Positions 3,084-47,857 of a stretch of DNA of 51,544 bases are shown piece after piece. This DNA comes from a virus (Duplodnaviria > Caudoviricetes). A model generated the notes under the pieces. It was not told the origin of the DNA, made no database searches, and saw nothing but the letters and a program-made list of their open reading frames with translations. How positions within the stretch are numbered: position 1 is the first letter of the stretch; every line of letters begins with the position of its first letter. A program made the position numbers and the translations under genes. The stretch spans positions 1-51,544 of the IMG/VR virus record IMGVR_UViG_3300045996_001835, one strand, 5' to 3'.

Positions 3084-3287
3084 GTGAATATGAGCACTCT
3101 GCTAACGATAGGTCAGCTAGCGGAACAGCTACAGGTCCATGAACAGACTTTAAGACAAATGATAAAGGACGGGAGAGTTACGGGGATCCCCGTTGGTAAG
3201 AAAAGTCTGAGATTCCGGCTGGACGATGTAATAGAGGAACTTAGAAAAACTAACGCCCCAGAAACGAAAGAACCCGCCGCTATCTAG
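3084..3287 (+). CDS. Cro/excisionase-like HTH DNA-binding protein
   Basis: LLTIGQLAEQLQVHEQTLRQMIKDG...LRFRLDDV winged-HTH pattern. Confidence 0.85.
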   Translation: MNMSTLLTIGQLAEQLQVHEQTLRQMIKDGRVTGIPVGKKSLRFRLDDVIEELRKTNAPETKEPAAI

Positions 3288-5315: not shown

Positions 5316-6281
5316 ATGGAAAGAAGAAGAGCGCACATAGTCAATTACTCGGGCGGTATCGGTTCTTACGTGGCCGCTAAACGCGTTAAGGAACGACACG
5401 GCGAAACAGATTTGATTTTGCTATTTACAGATACGATGACCGAGCACCCAGACCTGTATCGTTTCTTGGTCGAATCTGCGGCGAGGTTGTTTTGTGGTGG
5501 CACGAATCGCCACGATGCTCGCAGGCTGGTAGACCTCGCCAGACAGATACCCGAACTGTCACGCGAGACCGAAATCCTGCGCAAGCAGTTAATTCACAAG
5601 TTGCGTAAAGCGGCGACGAGGGTAATACCTGGCCTTGAGTGGCTCTGTGAGGGTCGAACGGTCTGGGAGCTTTTTAAAGATGAAAGATTTATCGGCAACA
5701 CGAAGGCAGACATCTGCTCCCGTGTGCTTAAGAGGGAAATGGCCGATGGCTACGTGAAGGCATTCCACACGCCTGAAACATGCGTGCGATACCTTGGCAT
5801 AGACATCTTCGAAGAGCATCGATATCTCAGAGCAAAAGAGTTGTTTCGCCCGTGGGTATTGGAGGCTCCGCTTTGTGACAAACCATACTACAGCAAAGAA
5901 GACATGAAGAGAATTGTTGAGGAGGATGAAATGCAGATACCTCAACTTTATATCGATGGCTTCGACCATAACAACTGTGGCGGATTTTGCAGCAAGGCGG
6001 GTCAAGGGCATTTTAAAAATTTGCTCCTAAAAAGGCCCGCTTATTTCGGATACAACGAAGACGAAGAGAATGACACGCGCGCCATTGTTGGCGACTATTC
6101 TGTTCTTCGCGACCGCACAGGCGGCGTCACAAAACCTCTAACATTGACGGCACTGCGCAAGAAAGTAGAGGAGAAAAAACCAATAGAAGAAAACGACTGG
6201 CGCGGTTGTGCGTGTTTCTTCGACACGTCCGACTCGCCCGACGCAGCCGACCATGAATTAGAGGCGGTGACATCCCCATGA
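5316..6281 (+). CDS. PP-loop (PAPS reductase-like) protein with Cys motifs
   Basis: SGGIGS PP-loop, FTDT, CSRVLK, HNNCGGFC, GCAC. Confidence 0.75.
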   Translation: MERRRAHIVNYSGGIGSYVAAKRVKERHGETDLILLFTDTMTEHPDLYRFLVESAARLFCGGTNRHDARRLVDLARQIPELSRETEILRKQLIHKLRKAATRVIPGLEWLCEGRTVWELFKDERFIGNTKADICSRVLKREMADGYVKAFHTPETCVRYLGIDIFEEHRYLRAKELFRPWVLEAPLCDKPYYSKEDMKRIVEEDEMQIPQLYIDGFDHNNCGGFCSKAGQGHFKNLLLKRPAYFGYNEDEENDTRAIVGDYSVLRDRTGGVTKPLTLTALRKKVEEKKPIEENDWRGCACFFDTSDSPDAADHELEAVTSP

Positions 6282-6763: not shown

Positions 6764-7023
6764 CAGCCGCCAAACGTAACCGCAAGCGTGGCCGCGTCGA
6801 GTGCGACGACTGCGCGAGATCGGGCTACAAGAAAACCGGAAATCTTATGCCCGCCGGCTGGTCGAAGAGCGGTCCCTGGCTGAGGCGGCTACTATGCCCG
6901 GACTGTGCGGCGAACCATAAAGCATCAGTTGAACGCAGTGCTGCGCGCGCGAGAGAAGCGCAGGAATCGGAAGCCGTCGCCATGCGCGAGGAGCGGGAGT
7001 TGTATGGGGCGGAGGGGAGATAG
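6760..7023 (+). CDS. Small zinc-finger protein
   Basis: CDDC...CPDC. Confidence 0.6.
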   Translation: MTAAKRNRKRGRVECDDCARSGYKKTGNLMPAGWSKSGPWLRRLLCPDCAANHKASVERSAARAREAQESEAVAMREERELYGAEGR

Positions 7024-7024
7024 C

Positions 7025-7750
7025 GTGCTGACATTTATATCCCTGTTCGCAGGTATCGGCGGGATGGACTTAGGCTTAGAGCGTGCGGGGATGCGGTGCG
7101 TGGCACAGGTGGAGATAGACGACTATGCAAACAGAGTGCTTGAGAAGAACTGGCCAGATGTTCCTCGATATCGAGACGTGCGAGAAGTTGGAAAGCACAA
7201 CCTGCCAACCGCCGATATCATCTGTGGTGGCTTTCCATGCCAAGACCTTGCCTATTGCGGGCTTGGAGCTGGCCTCGATGGTGAGCGGTCTGGATTATGG
7301 CGCGAGTACCACCGTATCATTCGCGAGTTACGACCCAGATACGTCCTCGTGGAAAACGTCGCAGCTTTGCTTAACAGGGGAATTGATAGAGTTCTCCGAG
7401 ACCTGGCCACGTGCGGGTATGATGCGGAATGGAGAATGTTTCGAGCGTCCGACTTCGGACTGCCCCATCGCAGAGAACGGCTGTTTATTGTTGCCTACCC
7501 CGACGAAGTCGATGGGCAAGCGGGGGTGGGGATTGAGCAGAACCGGACGCGCACGATACTCCCCACAGATAATCCACGATGCGTTCCTGTTCGGATACAA
7601 GCCGCCCATCGCTTTATTGGAATGGATGATGGGGTTCCCGCCCGACTTTACGAAGGCAGAGCAGGCGGAATCGGAAACGCCGTAGCTGTACCAGTTGCTG
7701 AATTTATTGGCAACTGCATTTTGAAATACCACAAGGAAACAACCCCATGA
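7025..7750 (+). CDS. dcm: DNA cytosine-5 methyltransferase, catalytic (alpha) chain
   Basis: FAGIGG (motif I), GGFPCQ (IV), ENV (VI), HRRERLF (VIII), GNAV (X); GTG start at 7025 after GGAGGGGAG. Confidence 0.93.
   Translation: MLTFISLFAGIGGMDLGLERAGMRCVAQVEIDDYANRVLEKNWPDVPRYRDVREVGKHNLPTADIICGGFPCQDLAYCGLGAGLDGERSGLWREYHRIIRELRPRYVLVENVAALLNRGIDRVLRDLATCGYDAEWRMFRASDFGLPHRRERLFIVAYPDEVDGQAGVGIEQNRTRTILPTDNPRCVPVRIQAAHRFIGMDDGVPARLYEGRAGGIGNAVAVPVAEFIGNCILKYHKETTP
7125..7685 (+). CDS. Putative methyltransferase beta chain nested in an alternative frame
   Basis: Open frame with SSWKTSQ, ETWPRAGMMRNG, LLPTPT and the motif IX-like EWMMGFPPDFT that is missing from the alpha frame; start uncertain. 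Confidence 0.7.
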   Translation: MQTECLRRTGQMFLDIETCEKLESTTCQPPISSVVAFHAKTLPIAGLELASMVSGLDYGASTTVSFASYDPDTSSWKTSQLCLTGELIEFSETWPRAGMMRNGECFERPTSDCPIAENGCLLLPTPTKSMGKRGWGLSRTGRARYSPQIIHDAFLFGYKPPIALLEWMMGFPPDFTKAEQAESETP

Positions 7751-9931: not shown

Positions 9932-10510
9932 ATGTATGTAAAAGCGATTGAAACCGAATATGACGGGCACAGGTTCCGAAGCAGGTCAGAGGCGCGGTGG
10001 GCGGTATTCTTCAACGCCCTCGGGGTGCCTTATGAGTACGAGAAGGAGGGGTTTGATCTTGAAGGAGTAGGGCGGTATCTACCTGATTTCTGGTTACCAG
10101 AACAGGATTTCTGGATTGAGATCAAGGGCAGTGAGCCTACAAGCGACGAAGGAGAACGTGCAAGTGCGTTGGCACGCGCCACCGGGAAAAGGGTCTTTGT
10201 CTTTTTCGGGGATATTCCTCAGTCCACTAAAGATAGTTGGGGTGGGGAGGATAGCGCACATCTTTATTGCACATTTCAGATCGAAGGTGAGAATGAGGTT
10301 GGATGGGACAGTTACTATTGCTGGTGCGAGTGTCCCCGGTGCGAGAAAGTAGGTATTGAATTCTCAGGTAGGTTTGAGCGCCTTTGCGATTGTGTTAGTG
10401 GTGACAAGGGACTGTGTAATTCTTTACGCATCCAGGCAGCTTACAAAGCTGCACGTTCTGCCCGCTTTGAACATGGCGAGACGCCGCAAATACCGGCGGT
10501 GGTTAGATGA
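9932..10510 (+). CDS. PD-(D/E)XK nuclease-family protein
   Basis: FRSRSEARWAVFF...YLPDFWLP...IEIKG. Confidence 0.8.
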   Translation: MYVKAIETEYDGHRFRSRSEARWAVFFNALGVPYEYEKEGFDLEGVGRYLPDFWLPEQDFWIEIKGSEPTSDEGERASALARATGKRVFVFFGDIPQSTKDSWGGEDSAHLYCTFQIEGENEVGWDSYYCWCECPRCEKVGIEFSGRFERLCDCVSGDKGLCNSLRIQAAYKAARSARFEHGETPQIPAVVR

Positions 10511-12200: not shown

Positions 12201-14684
12201 ATGAGCACAAACATAACCGACGTATCCCGGCGCATCGCCTGGAAGTGGGGACTGCCCGCCGCTGAAGTGCAAGAGCAATACGACAAAGACAACCGCTACT
12301 GCACTTCCTGCCGTCGCTGGGTAAACCGCCTGGAGATTGCAGTCTCGACTCTTCAGTGCCCGGACTGCGTAGGCAACAGCCGGTCCACGCGAACCGAGCA
12401 ACACGGTATCCGCCGAGCTGCACAGCGCGCCCGCGAACGCTACGAAGCGAAACGACAGACGCAAACCACGCCGTAAAGGGCTTTAAGGGGAAATATCATG
12501 TTTTGCCCAAATGACCTTAGGCCGTGTATTGATGACCTCTGCCACATGGGCGGCTGTCTTCGCTCAGGCACGTGCGAACCGATGGTATCCAGGTGCTTGG
12601 ATTGTGGAGAGCCTACCGAATCGGCCTATGCGACTCACTGCGACGATTGCTTACGCGACCACTATGCCAACGACGAAGAATAACGGGCCTAGAAGCGCCA
12701 CAGAGCGTTCCAAGGGTCCACGACTACCTAAAACAAGAGAACCTGCCCTCAGCGTCAAGATTTGGGGCCATAGCGACGAAAATAAACGACTAGACACCCC
12801 CGTTCTGCGGCCACAGAGTGAGTGTGGGGAGAGAAGGAGAGAGATTATGTGTGAATACATGGGATACGAATTTGGAGCGGGTAGCTACCCCGACTCAGTT
12901 TGCATTGACGGCTATTTGTGGGACGCCGATAGTGGCAGTGGTGATGGCCTGACTGTTGGCGGGGAAAAGCCCTGCCCGGAATGTAATCACGAGTCCTGGC
13001 TTCAATATGGGCTCGACAGTGTTGAAGAAGAGGGCGCTATCGCCGCCGCCCATAAGATGCCTCGCGAAAGTCCGTACTCAAACTCCGAGAAAAAATTGCG
13101 CTATGAAGCCGACCGGCCTACTTTAATCGCAGCCTGGCTAAAGGGTTATGACAGCGAAAAATCTAATCAACTTCTGGAGCAACAATGACACAACCAACCG
13201 AAAACCTGCCCCTGCTGCGACAGGTGGCAACAGCAGAAGGCTATACGATTATCTCCAATAACACGTCAACGCCCGAAGTTGTGAAGGCTTATAACGCCAG
13301 TGGTGGCAAATTACTACTGGAGTGCGAGCGGGACTTTTGTATTGTCGAATGGATAGATGCAGACCGGCAGCCCGTAATACTGCACTACTATTCTCCGCAC
13401 CTAGACCGCAATCATGTGGCTCGGCTGATGGAGAAGTGGCTGGCGACTCGAAAGCAGAAAGAGGCATTTATCAATGCCCTGATTAACGAGCTTTTGACGG
13501 CCGGGGATTTCGGCCCATTTGCAGCGGATGAGTTCGCCCTTGTATCGGCCCCACCCGAAACGTATCTCACGGCGCTCCTGGCTGTGGTCGGGGAAGGAGA
13601 GACATCGTGAAGCCAGTCATGCAAACGCAGTTCACATCGAAAGACCAATCGGTTCACGGCAACTGCTTCGCCGCTTGCGTGGCATCCCTGCTTGAATTGC
13701 CGCTTGAAGCGATGCCGTCATTTCTTAGCGAGGATTGGTGCAGTAATCTGTTCAGCCTTTTGAAGGAGCATGGTTATGATTTCGGCGGTTCGTTCTACCC
13801 AGAGGGTGCCGACTGGTGGCCGCGCTTGCAGGCACTCAGCCCCGGCGTTGACGGTTACTACATCGCTGGCGGGCCATCGCCTCGTGAATGGGTCAAACGT
13901 GGTCATGCGGTGATTTACAAAGACGGAGTGATGGTGCATGACCCTCACCCGAGTGGTGCAGGGATTTTGAGCGTGGGGCACGTGCTGATGATTGAAAAGG
14001 AAGGAGAGAACGATGGACGGTAAATGGTTACGTGGGGCGTTTCAGGGCGGTATCCGGCATTGCTTTAAAACAACGTCTGGAATTTCTCTGTGCGGTGGGT
14101 TTCAGGCCAATCCGGTTGTTGTTGGAGTTCTCGGCACAGACGACCCGCCGCTACCTGAATCGAATAACTGCCGCGAATGTTTAGCAGCGCGGGAAAAGAA
14201 GGAAGGTAAAGAATGAACGAAGAATTTGACCATGAAGGAACAGACGCTATTGTTTGTCCGCACTGCGGTCACGAACACCCGGACAGTTGGGAAGTATCCG
14301 GGCGCTTTGATGCCGGGCAACGTCGGTGTGGGCAGTGCAATGGCCTGTATCGGTGGGAGCGAGAAATCATAACCACCTACACGACCACTGCGCAGTTTAC
14401 GAGCGAGGAATTGGCAGCGCGGGAGCGGAAGGAGAATCATGTCGCAGGTTAAACAATGCCTTACGATCTCAGTGCCTATCGTAGATACGTTACTGAAAGG
14501 CGAACGGGTTGCTTTTGCCGAGGCGGTCAATGTCGCACTTAAAGAACACGGTGTCCCTGACGGCACGCCTGTTCAAGTCGATGTAATACCGCGCAAATAT
14601 GACTTTGAGGTGACGGCAACGTGGTCCCCGCAAGACGCTAATGCTCTGGCAGCGCGGGAGCGGAAGGAGAAAGAGAATGGATGA
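12201..14684 (+). other. Run of small coupled hypothetical genes (12201-12476, 12498-12683, 12847-13188, 13185-13610, 13607-14023, 14013-14216, 14213-14452, 14439-14684), many Cys-rich
   Basis: Overlapping start/stop junctions and RBSs; 13607-14023 has GNCFAAC...HAVI...HDP (papain-like triad pattern). Confidence 0.7.
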
Positions 14685-43299: not shown

Positions 43300-44325
43300 T
43301 TAGGTGCTCTTTTTTCGAGTATTGGTATAGCCTCGTAACTGTTTCTGTTCGCGTGCTGCTTTGAGGGGCGCTGTCTTCGACGGCCTGGAGTTCTTGGCGT
43401 TAATGGCGCGATTTAAGATCATGAATTCATCCTTGACCTTGGTCTCCATAGCCTTGCGTGAGACCTTGCCCGCACCCTCTAGAATCGGCTTGTCATTGAA
43501 ATTAAAGAACTCTCGCAATTTTACCACCCAGTCCAGCATCCTCATTGGCTTCCCCTCTAGGCTACGCAGCTCAGCGAATGACAGAAATTGCTCTACTAGA
43601 AGTTCAAGCCTTTTCATTTCATCTTCATTTAAATAGTTTTTAGCGACACGGGCATCATCTAGGCTAATACGGTCGCCCTTCCATGAGGTCAGGCCCATGT
43701 ATGGTTTCGAAGCATCTGCGCGCTGAACGATAATCTCGGCTGCCGTGTGTCCGTGGGTGGCGTAGTGAAACTGATTCTGGATTACTGCAAAAAATTCGTG
43801 TGCCATTTCGGACTTGGCGTCGTAGTCGGTGCTGGTCGCGAATATGTCTGTGACTTTAAGATAGAATGACTTTTCGGAAGTTCGAATGCTTCGGATGCGC
43901 GCGAGAAGGTCATCGAAGCGCTTTCCCTCGCCCTCCATGAGTTTCTGCTCATTTAGAACGAATCCCTTGGTGAGGTATTCGCGTAACCTATTCGTTGCCC
44001 ACTGCCGAAATTTGGTGCCGATCTTTGAGTTAACCCTATAGCCAAGGGATATGATGAGGTCTAAGTTGTAGAATGTAACATTCCTCGTAACCTGTCTATC
44101 TCCCTCATTTCGAACTGTCCGGAAATTCCGGATAGTTGAATCTTTCTCTAATTCTCCCTCGTCGTATATATTGTTAATATGCTCACTGATGGTTCGCACA
44201 TCTCGCTGGAAAAGCTCGGCCATCTGGGCTTGGGACATCCACACAGTTTCGTCATATAGCGCGACCTGGACTTGCGGCAAGCCATCGACCCTACATAATT
44301 CTAGTTGACCTTTGCTTTCTGCCAT
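43300..44325 (-). CDS. rhuM: RhuM-family DNA-binding protein
   Basis: ETVWMSQAQMAELF, YNLDLIISLGYRVNS, FRQWAT..LREYL.KGF, GHTAAEII, AKNYL. Confidence 0.92.
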   Translation of the reverse strand: MAESKGQLELCRVDGLPQVQVALYDETVWMSQAQMAELFQRDVRTISEHINNIYDEGELEKDSTIRNFRTVRNEGDRQVTRNVTFYNLDLIISLGYRVNSKIGTKFRQWATNRLREYLTKGFVLNEQKLMEGEGKRFDDLLARIRSIRTSEKSFYLKVTDIFATSTDYDAKSEMAHEFFAVIQNQFHYATHGHTAAEIIVQRADASKPYMGLTSWKGDRISLDDARVAKNYLNEDEMKRLELLVEQFLSFAELRSLEGKPMRMLDWVVKLREFFNFNDKPILEGAGKVSRKAMETKVKDEFMILNRAINAKNSRPSKTAPLKAAREQKQLRGYTNTRKKST

Positions 44326-44408
44326 AACACACCCCTAATATTCCGAACCGTCTATAATCGGTTCGCTCGGTACAGACACCCCACCTCCCCCATCGTTGCG
44401 CCCCACAC

Positions 44409-44444
44409 AAAAAGAAGGCCCACAGCATATCGCCGTGAGCCTCC
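44409..44444 (-). terminator. Intrinsic terminator after the HTH gene
   Basis: GGAGGCTCACGGC-GATAT-GCTGTGGGCCTTC TTTTT on the minus strand. Confidence 0.75.
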
Positions 44445-44484
44445 AGAAGCGGAGATATTCGAGTTTGTCTCCGACTTGATTTTA

Positions 44485-44817
44485 CTAGATAAAAACTCCC
44501 GGCGGTGCGATATTGCGCCAGTATTCACGCTCTGAATCAATCCATGCCTTGATAGTCCTGCTCTGATGTGACTCCGGGATAAGTAGAGCGGCAGTTAGTA
44601 GGCTGGCGCGTGGGGTCGGTTTTACTGGCTGTGTCCCCGTGCGCGTGTAGGTTTCGACGGACGGCACACTCACACCCATTTCTGCCGCCATCTGCACCTT
44701 CGTAATACCCCGCGCTTCGATAATCTCCCACACGATGCCTGTGCCGGTGGCGCGACTGTCGCGGGTGCCAGGCGGGCGGCCCTGGGGGCGCTTGACAGTT
44801 TTATTGGATGACTTCAT
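44485..44817 (-). CDS. XRE-like HTH protein (Aca-like candidate)
   Basis: RGITKVQMAAEMGVSVPSVETY HTH; GRPPG AT-hook-like motif; start inferred at 44817. Confidence 0.7.
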   Translation of the reverse strand: MKSSNKTVKRPQGRPPGTRDSRATGTGIVWEIIEARGITKVQMAAEMGVSVPSVETYTRTGTQPVKPTPRASLLTAALLIPESHQSRTIKAWIDSEREYWRNIAPPGVFI

Positions 44818-44820
44818 AAT
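44792..44820 (+). promoter_or_regulatory. Sigma70-type promoter of the mini-array
   Basis: TTGACA(44792-44797)-17-CATAAT(44815-44820); predicted start falls at the first repeat. Confidence 0.8.
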
Positions 44821-44824
44821 AGTT

Positions 44825-45018
44825 GTGTCAATCGAACCAGTATGGAATTGAAACATAGGTGGAGGCATAACGTATGTTTCATAATTTTAGTCGCACCGCG
44901 CTCTGTGCAAGCAGGGCAGGCGGATTGAAACACTGCTAGGGACGTAACTTGTGTTTCAGGTATTTTAATCGCACCGCGCAGGATAGGTTATTCACCTGTC
45001 CTGCAAGCGGATATCATT
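44825..45018 (+). CRISPR. Atypical CRISPR mini-array: 3 repeats, 2 spacers (29 and 30 nt), repeats 2 and 3 with inserted hairpins
   Basis: R1 GTGTCAATCGAACCAGTATGGAATTGAAAC (44825-44854); R2 ATTTTAGTCGCACCGC[18 nt]AGGCGGATTGAAAC (44884-44931); R3 ATTTTAATCGCACCGC[27 nt]AAGCGGATATCATT (44962-45018). Confidence 0.75.
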
Positions 45019-45271
45019 CCCCTCTTACTAACCGATTTGCCTCTTCAAGGGTGCAAACCCGATAGTCGCCGTTCTCGTCATGAATCTTTAAATAGTGTTC
45101 GCCTTGAAATACGGCTGCCTTTTTGTCGCCTGCCGCCCACCCGTTGAACTCTGATTCATCGTCGCACTGAACTGTCTCCATAGGCGCTTCAGGTTCTCCC
45201 CCATCGGCGTCTACAAAAATAATAGTTCCGGACTCGTGCGTGTAGTAGTAAGGGTATCCAGTATGTAGCAT
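45014..45271 (-). CDS. Small acidic protein (anti-defence candidate)
   Basis: 85 aa, D/E-rich, AAGGAG RBS. Confidence 0.7.
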   Translation of the reverse strand: MLHTGYPYYYTHESGTIIFVDADGGEPEAPMETVQCDDESEFNGWAAGDKKAAVFQGEHYLKIHDENGDYRVCTLEEANRLVRGE

Positions 45272-45282
45272 CTCAGTCTCCT

Positions 45283-45942
45283 TTAATCAACAACGGTGAA
45301 CTCTCCGCTTAGAACCTTTGCATCAATTTGCGCCTTAATCGACAAGGCTTTCTCTGCGGTTAGGATGCTCTCCGCTCCGTCAACGATGCGAGCCCCAACT
45401 CCGTCCTTAAGCTTTAATTGAACACGGCGTCCGTCCTGGCTCTGCGCGGTAATATCAAACTCCTTTTCAAGGATTGCATACTGCTCCATCCATTCTGGAG
45501 TTGATTCCGGAGTGTCGAGCGGTTCAGCTTTGCCGATGGTCACCTTTGCGATCTGTTCGCACAACTCCTCCAGCGTTGTGACCTCGCTCGACAGAGTTTT
45601 CGTGCTGGTAACATTTTGAAAGAACGCGGCTAACTCGCTTTCGGACAGAGCGGAATTAAGAAAGGCGCGGAATTGGGCCACTTCGATCTTATGGAAGCTC
45701 AAGAACTTTTCGATGTAAAAGGCAAGAGATGCAAATGCTTCTGGTGCACCTTCGGCGGTCCATGCAGCAGGGATGTTAAAACCTTCGATTCCTAACCAAT
45801 CTTCTACATACCATTTCTTAGCGTCTGCGTCCCACCGGGCCCCCTTCGCCTTGACTGCATCCTTTTTCTCGAAAGGCACATTCAAATAACAACGCTCTCC
45901 GAGGTTCTTACTTGCGACTTCAAATAATTCTTTGCTGTTCAT
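45283..45942 (-). CDS. DUF5710-like domain protein
   Basis: YLNVPFEKKDAVKAKGARWDADAKKWYV. Confidence 0.7.
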   Translation of the reverse strand: MNSKELFEVASKNLGERCYLNVPFEKKDAVKAKGARWDADAKKWYVEDWLGIEGFNIPAAWTAEGAPEAFASLAFYIEKFLSFHKIEVAQFRAFLNSALSESELAAFFQNVTSTKTLSSEVTTLEELCEQIAKVTIGKAEPLDTPESTPEWMEQYAILEKEFDITAQSQDGRRVQLKLKDGVGARIVDGAESILTAEKALSIKAQIDAKVLSGEFTVVD

Positions 45943-45956
45943 TTCGACTCCCTAAA

Positions 45957-46045
45957 TGCTTATACCTACAGTATACCCAAACTTACTTAGGGTTAAACAC
46001 TATTTAGAGAAATAAGTAGATTATTTTTTCGCCCTCATTTTTCCA
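45957..46045 (-). promoter_or_regulatory. Duplicated promoter/operator, copy 1
   Basis: -10 TATACT (45970-45975); core TATACCCAAACTTACTTAGGGTTAAACA is 27/28 identical to 46738-46765. Confidence 0.8.
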
Positions 46046-46089
46046 GATCGCGCATCATTAAAATCATGCGGCGAATACAGGCCGCTCTG

Positions 46090-46155
46090 GCTTCATTGTC
46101 GTTATTACGCATAATTCCATTGCCCGCAAACGTCGCAGGCTGGTTCGATTAAATA
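46090..46155 (-). repeat. Solitary CRISPR-repeat-like unit with two inserts
   Basis: Minus strand TATTTAATCGAACCA[GCCTGCGACGTTTGCGGGC]AATGGAATT[ATGCGTAATAACGACAAT]GAAGC. Confidence 0.65.
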
Positions 46156-46370
46156 CGGTTCATAGCTTCTGTAACTTCGGTCCAGAACGCATCAAATTCG
46201 CTCTGCGGCACCTCGTCATGGTAGGCGCGAATACCCTCATAAACTTCCGTTTCGATTTCACCGCGCTCCAAGGCGTCGGCAGGTTCGCACTTGTCTACCT
46301 CTGATTTGTAGGCGCGTGCAGCGGCTTCTGCGTTGTCATACTCGTAACCTGCAATAACTACTGTGTTCAT
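46149..46370 (-). CDS. 73-aa acidic protein flanked by repeat units (Acr candidate)
   Basis: GGAGAA RBS before ATG 46370; stop codon lies inside the downstream repeat. Confidence 0.7.
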   Translation of the reverse strand: MNTVVIAGYEYDNAEAAARAYKSEVDKCEPADALERGEIETEVYEGIRAYHDEVPQSEFDAFWTEVTEAMNRI

Positions 46371-46391
46371 TGTATTCTCCGAAAAACTGTT

Positions 46392-46433
46392 ATTTCGCCC
46401 TTTCGGGCAATTCCACATTGGTTCGATTAAAGG
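46392..46433 (-). repeat. Solitary CRISPR-repeat-like unit with a GNRA hairpin in the handle
   Basis: Minus strand CCTTTAATCGAACCAATGTGGAATT[GCCCGAAAGGGC]GAAAT, 30 nt without the insert. Confidence 0.8.
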
Positions 46434-46440
46434 TCCGAGG

Positions 46441-46680
46441 CTAGATGGCGTATGTCACACGGATGGTGTCGCCGTTGGTGTGGCGCATTTCTACACCCTC
46501 TGCTTCAGCCGCGATGGAGGCGCGCTCTTCGAGTTCACGCACAGCGTCGTCGTGGGACTCGAACTCTTCTTCGACATAATCTGTGCTCTGTAGATTGATG
46601 CCGTCGTAGCTCTGAATAGCGATGTAGAAGTTGCCGTCTTCGCGCTGTCCGATCTGATAAACATCGTGGGTCTTAGTCAT
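46441..46680 (-). CDS. 79-aa acidic protein (Acr candidate)
   Basis: GGGAGA RBS; first gene after promoter copy 2. Confidence 0.7.
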   Translation of the reverse strand: MTKTHDVYQIGQREDGNFYIAIQSYDGINLQSTDYVEEEFESHDDAVRELEERASIAAEAEGVEMRHTNGDTIRVTYAI

Positions 46681-46722
46681 TACAGTCTCCCTGTGCTGCG
46701 CTTCGGATTAACGTCTCTGCGC

Positions 46723-46811
46723 TGCTTATATATCTATTATACCCAAACTAACTTAGGGTTAAACATAAATCAGAGAAATAAATGAAATATTTTTTCGCTC
46801 CCATTATTCCA
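46723..46811 (-). promoter_or_regulatory. Duplicated promoter/operator, copy 2
   Basis: -10 TATAAT (46736-46741); imperfect dyad ACCCAAA-N5-TTAGGGT; AT-rich upstream element shared with copy 1. Confidence 0.8.
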
Positions 46812-46900
46812 AGAACCATGCCACGTCCCATTCCTGACTAAAAACCCCTCTCTTGGGGTACACTTATAGTAATAATCGTTTTAGTCATTAGGAGCCATTT

Positions 46901-47857
46901 ATGGGCGATGCAGTAGCGCCAATTCGCGGGCCACAAGGCATTCAGGGGATTCAGGGCATCCAGGGAATTCAAGGCCCAGCCGGACCTGCTGGAGCCAATG
47001 GCACCAATGGCACGAACGGGGCCGATGCTTTCCAACCTGCATCCGAAGACTTCATCGCATCCGGCACGTATAACATCCCCTCCGGTGCCAAGTACCTCGA
47101 TGTTGACGCAACCGGTGGCGGTGGTGGTGGCGGTGGCGGCAGACGCGGCGCAGCGGCTACAGACCGCACGGGCGGTGCTTCAGGCGCAGGCGGTGGAAGG
47201 ACGCGGCGGCGTATCCTTGTCGCAGACCTGGGCGGCGCAACGTCCCTGACAGTTACGATCGGTGCAGGCGGCACAGCAGGGGCGGCGGCAAGCGGGGATA
47301 CAGCCAATGGCGGTAATGGCGGTACGGGTGGCACCACAATCGTTGCCAACGGAGCCACTAACCTGGTGCGTGCGGGTGGCGGTGGCGGTGGCACCGGCGG
47401 CGTGCAGGGCACAACCACGGCAGGCGGTGGCGCGTCGCTGGGCGAGTTCTCAGGGGCTCTAGGAACTGCTGCGACTAACGGTGTGGGCGGCAACTCCAAC
47501 AACGCGAGTATGGCGGCAGGTGGCGGCGGGCCAGGTGGCGGGATACCGGCAGCGAATACCTTTAGTGTCGGTAAAGATGGCGGTGTCGGGGCGCGCGAGT
47601 ATGGTGGGACTGCTACAACTGTAGGTGTGGGTGGCACGACAGCAGGCACAGCAGGCACAGCAGCACCGACGCCCGACACTGACCGTCCCGGCAATGGTGG
47701 AGGCGGAGGTGCAAGCAATCCAAGCGGCGCGGCGGGAGCTGGCGGCAATGGTGCTCGTGGTGGCGGAGGTGGCGGTGGCGGTGCTGCTGTCAATGGCTCT
47801 GCTTCGGGTGCCGGCGGTGCGGGTGGCGCAGGCTACGTGCGTATCTATGCGTCCTAA
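46901..47857 (+). CDS. Glycine-rich tail-fibre-like protein with short collagen repeat
   Basis: GPQ(GIQ)4GPAGPA then polyglycine-rich domain ending GYVRIY. Confidence 0.8.
   Translation: MGDAVAPIRGPQGIQGIQGIQGIQGPAGPAGANGTNGTNGADAFQPASEDFIASGTYNIPSGAKYLDVDATGGGGGGGGGRRGAAATDRTGGASGAGGGRTRRRILVADLGGATSLTVTIGAGGTAGAAASGDTANGGNGGTGGTTIVANGATNLVRAGGGGGGTGGVQGTTTAGGGASLGEFSGALGTAATNGVGGNSNNASMAAGGGGPGGGIPAANTFSVGKDGGVGAREYGGTATTVGVGGTTAGTAGTAAPTPDTDRPGNGGGGGASNPSGAAGAGGNGARGGGGGGGGAAVNGSASGAGGAGGAGYVRIYAS

Follow-up and report, generated by a model that had tools for sequence, protein, structure and literature searches.

Why should a phage in which no Cas6 domain is matched hold, inside 1.6 kb, five copies of one clustered regularly interspaced short palindromic repeat (CRISPR) family, four of them extended by hairpins? 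The question is raised by the IMG/VR virus record IMGVR_UViG_3300045996_001835 (Duplodnaviria; Caudoviricetes), which is linear, 51,544 bp long and 91% complete by CheckV; the window analysed here is this whole record, and the island in question lies between positions 44,409 and 46,811. The answer that we favour, tentatively, is that the island may be a phage anti-CRISPR locus, in which five mimics of a host repeat of the type I-B family, similar to the RNA anti-CRISPRs called Racrs, would serve as decoys for the repeat-cutting enzyme Cas6b.

Repeat copies in the island

The five units (R1 to R5) and the two stretches between the first three (S1 and S2) are as follows.

44825-44854, plus strand: R1, 30 nt without interruption, off the family consensus in its first five bases (alignment)
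44855-44883, plus strand: S1, a 29-nt spacer-like stretch, its 3′ part pairing with the R1 handle (inverted and direct repeats)
44884-44931, plus strand: R2, a 48-nt copy ending in GGATTGAAAC, its 5-nt loop replaced by a hairpin (alignment, fold)
44932-44961, plus strand: S2, 30 nt, spacer-like and a homologue of S1, also with an anti-handle (direct repeat)
44962-~45020, plus strand: R3, a 5′ half, an 11-bp hairpin and a degenerate 3′ half, ~59 nt (alignment, fold)
46108-46155, minus strand: R4, a 48-nt copy with a loop hairpin and a degenerate handle (alignment, fold)
46392-46433, minus strand: R5, a complete repeat of 42 nt with a 12-nt GAAA-loop hairpin between GGAATT and GAAAT (alignment)

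The 12-nt 5′ half of the repeat, TTTAATCGMACC, has five matches with at most one mismatch, where 0.32 are expected, and none of 100 shuffles reaches five. Four of these matches lie inside the island and the fifth outside it at 13122; R1 matches the half only when two mismatches are allowed. The longer core AATCGMACC-N5-GGAATTG (21 positions) is matched twice, by R1 and R5 on opposite strands, and has no match in 100 shuffles. An initial annotation of this DNA, made from its letters alone, had proposed five copies of one repeat family in two orientations, and they are found where it had placed them.

R2, R3 and R4 have 20-33 nt where the native repeat has its 5-nt loop, flanked by ...ACC and GGA..., and R5 becomes a perfect 30-nt repeat when its 12-nt insert is taken out. 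The same annotation had arrived at 30 nt in three copies and 29 nt in the fourth after deletion of the inserts; for R5 the result is exact, but in R2 to R4 the boundaries of the inserts are free to choose. The ends of R2 and R3, a (G/A)TCGCACC start and a GGATTGAAAC end, are also the ends of natural 32-nt stem-loop repeats in the arrays L441, L404 and L475 (L numbers denote loci fetched for comparison), which we take to be of type I-C. R2 and R3 may thus be hybrids with this stem-loop family rather than 30-nt repeats that received an insert. The stretch R1-S1-R2-S2-R3 is not a bona fide array: the unit starts are 59 and 78 nt apart, the repeats are unequal in length (30, 48 and ~59 nt) and the spacers are homologous.

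The repeat family and its link to type I-B

All scans of sequence collections used exact patterns; their counts are lower bounds, biased to well-kept copies. In one genome per species the core was found at no fewer than 120 loci, and among the matches listed there are 93 regular arrays, with at least three copies spaced at 58-75 nt, as well as 24 single copies and 3 other arrangements. The closest array among the matches listed belongs to Candidatus Poribacteria (L044); it equals R1 at 25 of 25 core positions and differs in the first five bases, and this form of the repeat is common to 30 of the 34 copies of that array. The 25-nt core of R1 is also that of a solitary copy in L003. The loop variant of R5, AATGT, is the one seen in arrays of Blastocatellia, Pyrinomonadaceae, Actinomycetota and Armatimonadota.

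R1 ends at its 3′ side in the tag ATTGAAAC, and arrays of the family adjoin Cas1b, Cas6 and Cas8b1. The array of L027 (Poribacteria) follows cas3, cas4 and a type I-B cas1 (TIGR03641, 1.4e-138), with a cas2-like open reading frame (ORF) next, judged by eye; Cas1b scores above the cut-off in four of the five Poribacteria genomes, and L494 (Poribacteria) encodes Cas6 (1.7e-40) and Cas8b1 (2.3e-43). The neighbours of the L044 array are Cas5- and Cas7-like, weakly and below the cut-off. Where its subtype can be read, the family is, judged by these genes, type I-B, and the earlier assignment of the repeats is borne out by this tie to I-B cas genes in Poribacteria. A refutation check set beforehand, a comparison of the insert-free copies with real CRISPR repeat families, was run, and the copies match a family with the ATTGAAAC tag.

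Cas6b of type I-B is reported to cleave repeats of 30 and 37 nt, leaving an 8-nt tag, AUUGAAAC, and its cleavage was lowered by a mutation that disrupts the short predicted hairpin of the repeat (Richter et al., NAR 2012, PMC3479195). The present family resembles the repeats of that report in its length of 30 nt, its 8-nt tag ATTGAAAC and its short hairpin relevant to cleavage; the phage copies differ in lying outside arrays, without cas genes, and in having the loop replaced by long stems.

Some Poribacteria I-B loci hold repeat sequence beside cas genes. On the minus strand of L494 (~10210-10260) a repeat-like 5′ half ends ~15 nt before the cas6 start codon, and in L495 (9850-9990, minus strand) a two-unit mini-array lies between cas6 and a 579-aa ORF; repeat-like sequences near cas6 in I-B loci have been reported in a preprint (10.1101/2023.03.03.530964). 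Between cas1 and cas2 of L027 (3500-3740) there are head-to-tail units of ~60 nt with GGTGAAAC. Full solitary repeats, distant from arrays, occur in Poribacteria chromosomes at L042 4575-4598 and L003 3400-3423 (both minus strand), the former upstream of a gene whose start resembles, by eye, a PAPS-reductase/DndC-type protein.

Hairpin inserts and handles

The inserts are self-complementary, as had been claimed. R2, R3 and R4 fold at z = -2.9, -6.4 and -3.0 against 500 mononucleotide shuffles, none of which folds as well as R3, and the R5 insert reads GCCC-GAAA-GGGC. We compared R2, R3 and R4 with 11 hairpin-bearing units from other loci. Thirteen of the 14 fold at z <= -1.7 by the same measure, and in 13 of the 14 printed folds, L047 being the exception, the outermost pairs are the CC (of ACC) and the GG (of GGAAT) of the family. 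Because these pairs are the family's own, the inserts are predicted to lengthen the repeat's structure rather than break it, so that the weak native CC/GG mini-stem becomes a stable stem-loop immediately 5′ of where Cas6b is expected to cut. The earlier idea that the inserts let the repeats escape normal use is less likely, since hairpins that extend the mini-stem more likely keep or strengthen recognition by Cas6. The three loop inserts of the window are mutually unlike and occur once each in the phage, so that it is the structure which recurs and not one inserted sequence; an origin from a mobile palindrome is ruled out on the same grounds.

The repeat-sense strand is favoured by the fold energies, which agrees with the initial annotation. 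R1-R3 has -70 kcal/mol in the sense direction against -60.7 kcal/mol for the complement, R5 has -15.5 against -11.0 and R4 has -15.1 against -11.5 kcal/mol. The complement of R1-R3 also folds well (z = -3.28), and the R4 and R5 regions fold no better than shuffles (z = -0.58 and -0.98).

The handle takes part in a second structure: its end, together with the first spacer bases, pairs with the 3′ part of S1 (9 nt, perfect) and of S2 (8 nt). S1 and S2 belong to a direct repeat, D3, which is 74% identical over 35 nt with the handle included, and a T-A pair in the handle/anti-handle hairpin of unit 1 is replaced by C-G in unit 2 (read directly). Because S1 and S2 are copies of each other, this counts as one event and one compensatory change. 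The two stretches are most divergent in the 5′ seed part and conserved in the 3′ anti-handle part, a pattern that points to selection on structure. In the spacers of real arrays an anti-handle of 8 nt or more is rare (26/7373, 0.35%).

Hairpin-bearing units in other genomes

The hairpin-unit design is not unique to the window and is found on other mobile elements and in two host arrays. A metagenome scan gave at least 118 loci with at least 127 matches, and among the matches listed five distinct units in four loci pass a strict filter. In three of the four loci (L386, L406 and L368), 3-4 units stand in tandem and are arranged as in the window. The cluster opens with a native unit in L386 and L406 and, as the one departure, with a hairpin-bearing unit in L368; the later units have differing GC-rich hairpins, and the 3′ half of the last unit is degenerate in L386 and L406. 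A terminator follows the cluster, called by the scan in L406 and seen by eye in L386 and L368, and the neighbours are mobile-element genes, encoding an HTH_3 protein, a DUF4406 protein and two integrases. On the minus strand of L368 the inserts of units 2 and 3 are mutually complementary (11-nt match), so that they could pair between units instead of within one.

The prophage-like contig L222 (identical in sequence to L357; Porphyromonadaceae) contains a hairpin unit with its insert at the position of that in R4. This unit lies across the stop of one ORF, and 8 nt separate its end from the start codon of a resolvase. The other 20 loci from the scan with the R4/L222-type pattern look like chance, and only L222 and its twin were kept. 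A genome-wide scan with gap patterns for more hairpin units was dominated by chance matches.

In Saprospiraceae, the arrays L047 (1370-1766, plus strand) and L294 (4568-5050, minus strand) switch from 30-nt to 51-nt repeats. Their 5-7 terminal 51-nt repeats have one hairpin insert copied throughout, a period of ~87 nt and unique spacers of normal length; because distinct spacers lie between these hairpin repeats, the loop appears to tolerate an insert during adaptation. They share with the phage units the repeat family and the loop position of the insert, and differ from them in being regular arrays of bacterial genomes with a single insert sequence. None of the five scanned ORFs flanking the L294 array is a cas gene, and we know of no published account of such arrays. 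In L274 and L114 the insert is in the last array repeat only.

Predicted transcription and gene layout

The further features of the island are as follows.

44414-44444, minus strand: terminator-like hairpin with T run, 3′ of the regulator gene (terminator scan)
44485-44817, minus strand: regulator, a basic protein of 110 aa (pI 10.4), putative helix-turn-helix, Aca-like by position only (phrog_4779, 2.2e-5)
44792-44820, plus strand: sigma-70-type promoter match, TTGACA-17 nt-CATAAT, directed toward R1 (11/12 matches)
45014-45271, minus strand: orf85, an acidic ORFan (pI 4.45)
45283-45942, minus strand: orf219, with an N-terminal DUF5710 at residues 17-48 (PF18974, 1.8e-13)
45957-46045, minus strand: D1a, an 89-nt direct repeat upstream of orf219, presumed promoter/operator (repeat comparison)
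46068-46085, minus strand: terminator-like hairpin ~20 nt downstream of R4 (terminator scan)
46149-46370, minus strand: orf73, acidic, flanked by R5 and R4 (pI 4.16)
46441-46680, minus strand: orf79, an acidic ORFan (pI 4.30; predicted local distance difference test, pLDDT, 87.7)
46723-46811, minus strand: D1b, the second 89-nt repeat copy, upstream of orf79 (repeat comparison)

Two promoter-like sites occur in 44300-46950, the promoter match of R1 among them. It is antisense within the first codons of the regulator gene and ends ~5 nt before R1. Because this 11/12 match abuts R1, R1-S1-R2-S2-R3 is most simply read as a separate small RNA of the plus strand, converging on the second of the two gene groups described below. 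The odd first bases of R1 make TGTCAA, the mirror of the TTGACA that lies 27 nt upstream (44793-44831); the two may together form an operator or provide a weak -35 box on the minus strand.

The minus strand carries all six ORFs of the island, in two groups, each behind one D1 copy. The order in group 1 is D1b, orf79, R5, orf73, R4 and a terminator-like hairpin, and in group 2 it is D1a, orf219, orf85, the complement of R3-R1, the basic regulator and a terminator. R5 ends 21 nt before the start codon of orf73, the stop codon of which is inside the 5′ half of R4; the ATG of a 25-codon ORF is inside the degenerate handle of R4. The order of the genes, small ORFs and then a putative helix-turn-helix gene, agrees with that of acr-aca operons, the promoter of which contains an inverted repeat. 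The initial annotation had seen two near-identical promoters here. What stands of this is a pair of 89-nt direct repeats, 81% identical and both with an imperfect palindrome (by eye); the sigma-70 scan gave no call, and a promoter role is presumed from their position.

The neighbouring ORFs agree with their first description: those of 85, 73 and 79 aa have pI values of 4.2-4.5, and the DUF5710 match of orf219 has an E value of 1.8e-13. For the helix-turn-helix gene the sole support is the match to phrog_4779, Pfam giving none. No relative of the regulator, orf85 or orf79 was found among 5.8 billion proteins, and orf73 has three in 1.84 billion representatives, the best of them 74% identical and located on an 8.9-kb contig. 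Scans of viral contigs by protein gave nothing for the regulator or with the orf73 alignment, and only two DUF5710-domain matches for orf219. Single-sequence structure models reached a pLDDT of 87.7 for orf79 and 77.7 for orf73; at E <= 0.001 neither has a fold match in PDB, nor does orf79 among viral models. No island ORF matches an anti-CRISPR in Pfam or PHROG, and it is by their neighbourhood that the acidic ORFs may be anti-CRISPRs. The description of the island as Cas-less agrees with our results, there being no Cas6 domain match in the window and no Cas family among the seven ORFs scanned in or beside the island, with the rest of the phage ORFs scanned in part only.

Repeat mimics as possible decoys for Cas6b

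On the reading that we prefer, the near-consensus promoter would drive a short plus-strand RNA, R1-S1-R2-S2-R3, and R5 and R4 would be co-transcribed on the minus strand with the small acidic ORFs. Host Cas6b, which normally cuts repeats 8 nt from the 3′ end, would bind the mimics instead. In R2, R3 and R4 the stable hairpin in place of the 5-nt loop would lock the CC/GG mini-stem, giving pre-folded, RNase-resistant binding sites. The handle would be tucked into a second hairpin with the 'spacer' in R1 and R2 and split by the GAAA-loop hairpin in R5; a hidden or split handle would make the cut product a poor scaffold for Cas5 and Cas7. Cas6b, perhaps with further Cascade subunits, would be titrated off the real CRISPR RNAs (crRNAs), as has been shown for Racrs of other subtypes. 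Protein anti-CRISPRs may be encoded by the acidic ORFs, with the basic regulator as their putative Aca-like repressor. Of the explanations considered, the decoy explains the most, taking in the promoter-fronted repeat, the pre-folded sites, the masked handles, the loop variants, and the acidic ORFs with their regulator. By analogy, the layout of promoter and repeat, small acidic ORFs and regulator fits the racr-acr loci described in the main text of PMC10651486.

Several observations weigh against decoys. No RNA run is among the public runs listed as holding the island. R3 and R4 are without a good handle, their 3′ halves being degenerate, and the hairpins could equally block Cas6b. An anti-handle of at least 8 nt is present in 1 of 107 distinct solitary units elsewhere, which is no clear enrichment, and we rejected it as a general feature of solitary units for this reason. 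The homology of S1 and S2 and their length, close to that of spacers, would also suit guides. The units are clustered, whereas SRUFinder, the program for solitary repeat units (SRUs), is reported to have retained only those not associated with other (partial) repeats (PMC10651486). The D1 repeats were not flagged by the sigma-70 promoter scan, the regulator has no assignment to an Aca family (only phrog_4779), and neither in sequence nor in fold do the three acidic ORFs resemble known anti-CRISPR (Acr) proteins. The spacers of the fetched arrays all leave the phage unmatched and so give no link to a host. The best-matching run is labelled soil, and most Poribacteria genomes originate from marine sponges.

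Alternative explanations

The next candidate, which we consider unlikely and still worth serious weighing, is a Cracr-type array (Liu et al., 10.1101/2024.10.29.618823), in which R1-S1-R2-S2-R3 would yield two crRNA-like RNAs that re-aim host Cascade at the promoter of the cas operon or of a Cascade-repressed toxin. The layout is repeat-spacer-repeat, with spacers of 29-30 nt against ~36 nt in real arrays. Homology of S1 and S2 is expected, following that preprint, if one promoter is aimed at in two host variants, and the last repeat is degenerate like its psi-repeats; the host I-B loci hold a mini-array and a repeat-like element of their own at cas6. The Cracr arrays of the preprint are likewise multiplexed, phage-borne and short-spacered, with likely acr genes adjoining. 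They differ from the window in being defined by a spacer match to host cas or toxin promoters or to CreA/CreR (at least 9 PAM-proximal matches to the host promoter or CreA/CreR spacer, PAM being the protospacer-adjacent motif), of which none was found for the window; the hosts reported are Pseudomonadota, Bacillota and Actinomycetota, and the main text has no hairpin inserts. In 236 genome loci (1.54 Mb), S1 has 4 exact matches to its seed (positions 1-5 and 7-11) and S2 has 2, no more than chance given shuffled means of 2.4 and 2.0; this is a weak test, since the host need not be among these genomes. Three of the S1 matches share a 12-mer and lie in unrelated contexts. The divergence of S1 and S2, greatest in the seed and least in the anti-handle, runs counter to a guide function, and R4 and R5 have no spacer-like partner.

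Control by Cas6 is a further reading, to which we give a rather small chance: host Cas6b would bind or cut the phage mRNA at R5 and R4 and thereby set the stability or translation of the flanked genes. In its favour, orf73 stands between R5 and R4 in sense orientation, the R5 hairpin is 3 nt from the would-be 5′ end made by Cas6, a host I-B locus has its repeat-like 5′ half ~15 nt before the cas6 start codon, and the L222 unit lies over one stop and 8 nt before the resolvase start codon. It leaves the putative promoter-driven R1-R3 RNA of the other strand unexplained; the R4/R5 region folds no better than shuffles (z = -0.58, -0.98), and the layout is seen in three cases only.

A broader version, for which we see a similarly small chance, would make the hairpin-extended mimics a distinct class of mobile-element RNA, serving as super-substrate traps for Cas6b and as Cas6b-addressed punctuation of mRNA. 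The orf73 message would be excised by host Cas6b, cutting at R5 and remaining bound at R4, and would gain a protective 5′ GAAA-loop hairpin that also stops Cascade assembly. Maturation of the phage's counter-defence gene would in that case be confined to cells with an active CRISPR system. Such a design would mirror the repeat-like element just before cas6 in host I-B loci.

Still less probable is a recombination substrate or relic, that is, the remains of a host array, or sites for recombining with or integrating into arrays, with no function as RNA. The L368 cluster between two integrase genes, the L222 unit before a resolvase and the degeneracy of R3 and R4 would agree with this. CRISPR-repeat-like prophage attachment sites (cited in PMC10651486 as ref. 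17) also place a repeat copy on a phage, and the window phage differs from these in having partition genes and no integrase or resolvase match. Against a relic, the 91%-complete record has no Phage_integrase or Resolvase match and does have ParA and ParB, the spacers are duplicates of each other and not acquired, and R1 is directly preceded by a strong promoter match; selection is indicated by four hairpins that differ from one another, fold well and occupy defined positions, and by a compensatory change.

An inter-viral mini-array, with S1 and S2 as real guides that would use host Cas proteins against competing phages, is very improbable: the repeat-spacer-repeat layout suits it, and virus-borne mini-arrays of such a role are known (PMC10651486, ref. 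14; 10.1101/2023.03.03.530964), but no exact match to the opening 22 nt of either S1 or S2 occurs in the viral contig collection, neither stretch has a meaningful match in the window or the fetched loci, and the spacers are short, alike and self-pairing with the handle. The least probable reading is an antisense anti-repeat RNA, in which minus-strand read-through over R3-R1, between orf85 and the regulator gene, would give the well-folding complement (z = -3.28) and so mask host pre-crRNA repeats or mark them for double-strand RNases; the near-consensus promoter would drive the sense strand, G-U pairs favour that strand, and R4 and R5 are in sense orientation within the same operon system.

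Relation to known RNA anti-CRISPRs

RNA anti-CRISPRs are a young field, Racrs, Cracrs and viral single-guide RNAs having been reported since 2023. Racrs were tested functionally for types I-C, I-E, I-F and V-A (Camara-Wilpert et al., Nature 2023, PMC10651486), 'I-B' being absent from the main text, and racr candidates are reported there to co-locate with acr genes. The island resembles the Racrs and SRUs of that paper in having Cas-less copies of a host repeat on a phage, one of them behind a promoter match, beside small ORFs and a regulator, and titration of Cas6 and further Cas subunits is proposed in both cases. It differs in its five clustered units in two orientations, four with added hairpins and two with a hidden handle; its function is a prediction from sequence.

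Our literature searches brought up no repeat mimic with an added hairpin or a split handle, though supplementary tables may list such units. By word search, hairpin inserts are not described in the main texts of PMC10651486, 10.1101/2024.10.29.618823, 10.1101/2023.03.03.530964 and the CRISPR-supervision preprint; the word 'hairpin' does not occur in the main text of the first and occurs four times in the second, never for inserts. Mimicry of repeats by phages is a known kind, and the clustered units, the stems grafted on the native mini-stem and the masked handles are a form of it that is new to us.

If the mimics are remodelled in this way, by grafting of stems and hiding of handles, they bear on how Cas6b reads 'unstructured' repeats and would be ready-made designs for Cas6b traps or RNA-processing tags. 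They would also be stackable, and several repeat variants may be targeted from one island. Current finders miss such units: repeats that are clustered or partial are discarded in SRU searches, and an array is recognised by its finders only if its repeats have the same length. The locus further supplies three ORFan candidates for anti-CRISPR proteins of type I-B, in hosts that have hardly been studied.

The phage and its host

The phage encodes, among other proteins, a PAPS-reductase-like protein, a DNA methyltransferase, two replication initiators, a large terminase and a major head protein. The partition genes, ParB- and ParA-like, lie at 529-2242, 5316-6281 and 6905-7750, with the PAPS-reductase-like and methyltransferase genes. 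The record has no match to the Phage_integrase and Resolvase families; together with the partition genes this suggests, on gene content, a plasmid-like prophage. No Rfam family or tRNA was found in the window, and the island had no blastn match among GenBank phages.

One public run holds 96% of the sampled words of the island; its label is soil metagenome, and it could be the sample of origin. An identical 151-nt piece of the island is present in a second soil run, and both DNA runs yielded identical contigs only. Because the run is labelled soil, Acidobacteriota or Armatimonadota are at least as likely to be hosts as Poribacteria. A search of 20 kb of the phage against the five Poribacteria genomes gave nothing, and a 17-nt match of D1a in L027 was outside the leader and judged chance. 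A Pyrinomonadaceae spacer (L499 2542-2559) matches a RhuM-family gene of the phage (44246-44263) over 18 nt; the motif is conserved and the match does not extend, and we rejected it, the spacer probably targeting another element.

Other solitary and doubled repeats

Plain solitary copies of the repeat are common in viruses. Among the 100 viral loci found with the core, 77 have a single match and 49 have exactly one full core plus handle. No DNA of the window is shared with the viral loci fetched, including a set of viral contigs of 50-90 kb (L125, L134, L142, L154, L159, L160, L174, L177, L182 and others) that share one solitary repeat. In these contigs, mostly from one metagenome, the repeat is enclosed by a GGAAG/CTTCC stem, with TTGAC directly after.

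In ~30 metagenome arrays (for example L403 at ~1000-1060 and 3215-3260, L376 and L378) the spacer opens with a second copy of GGAATTGAAA, the 3′ half of the repeat, which starts 3-9 nt after the repeat. This doubling could reflect slipped integration, or spacers taken from repeat-bearing DNA.

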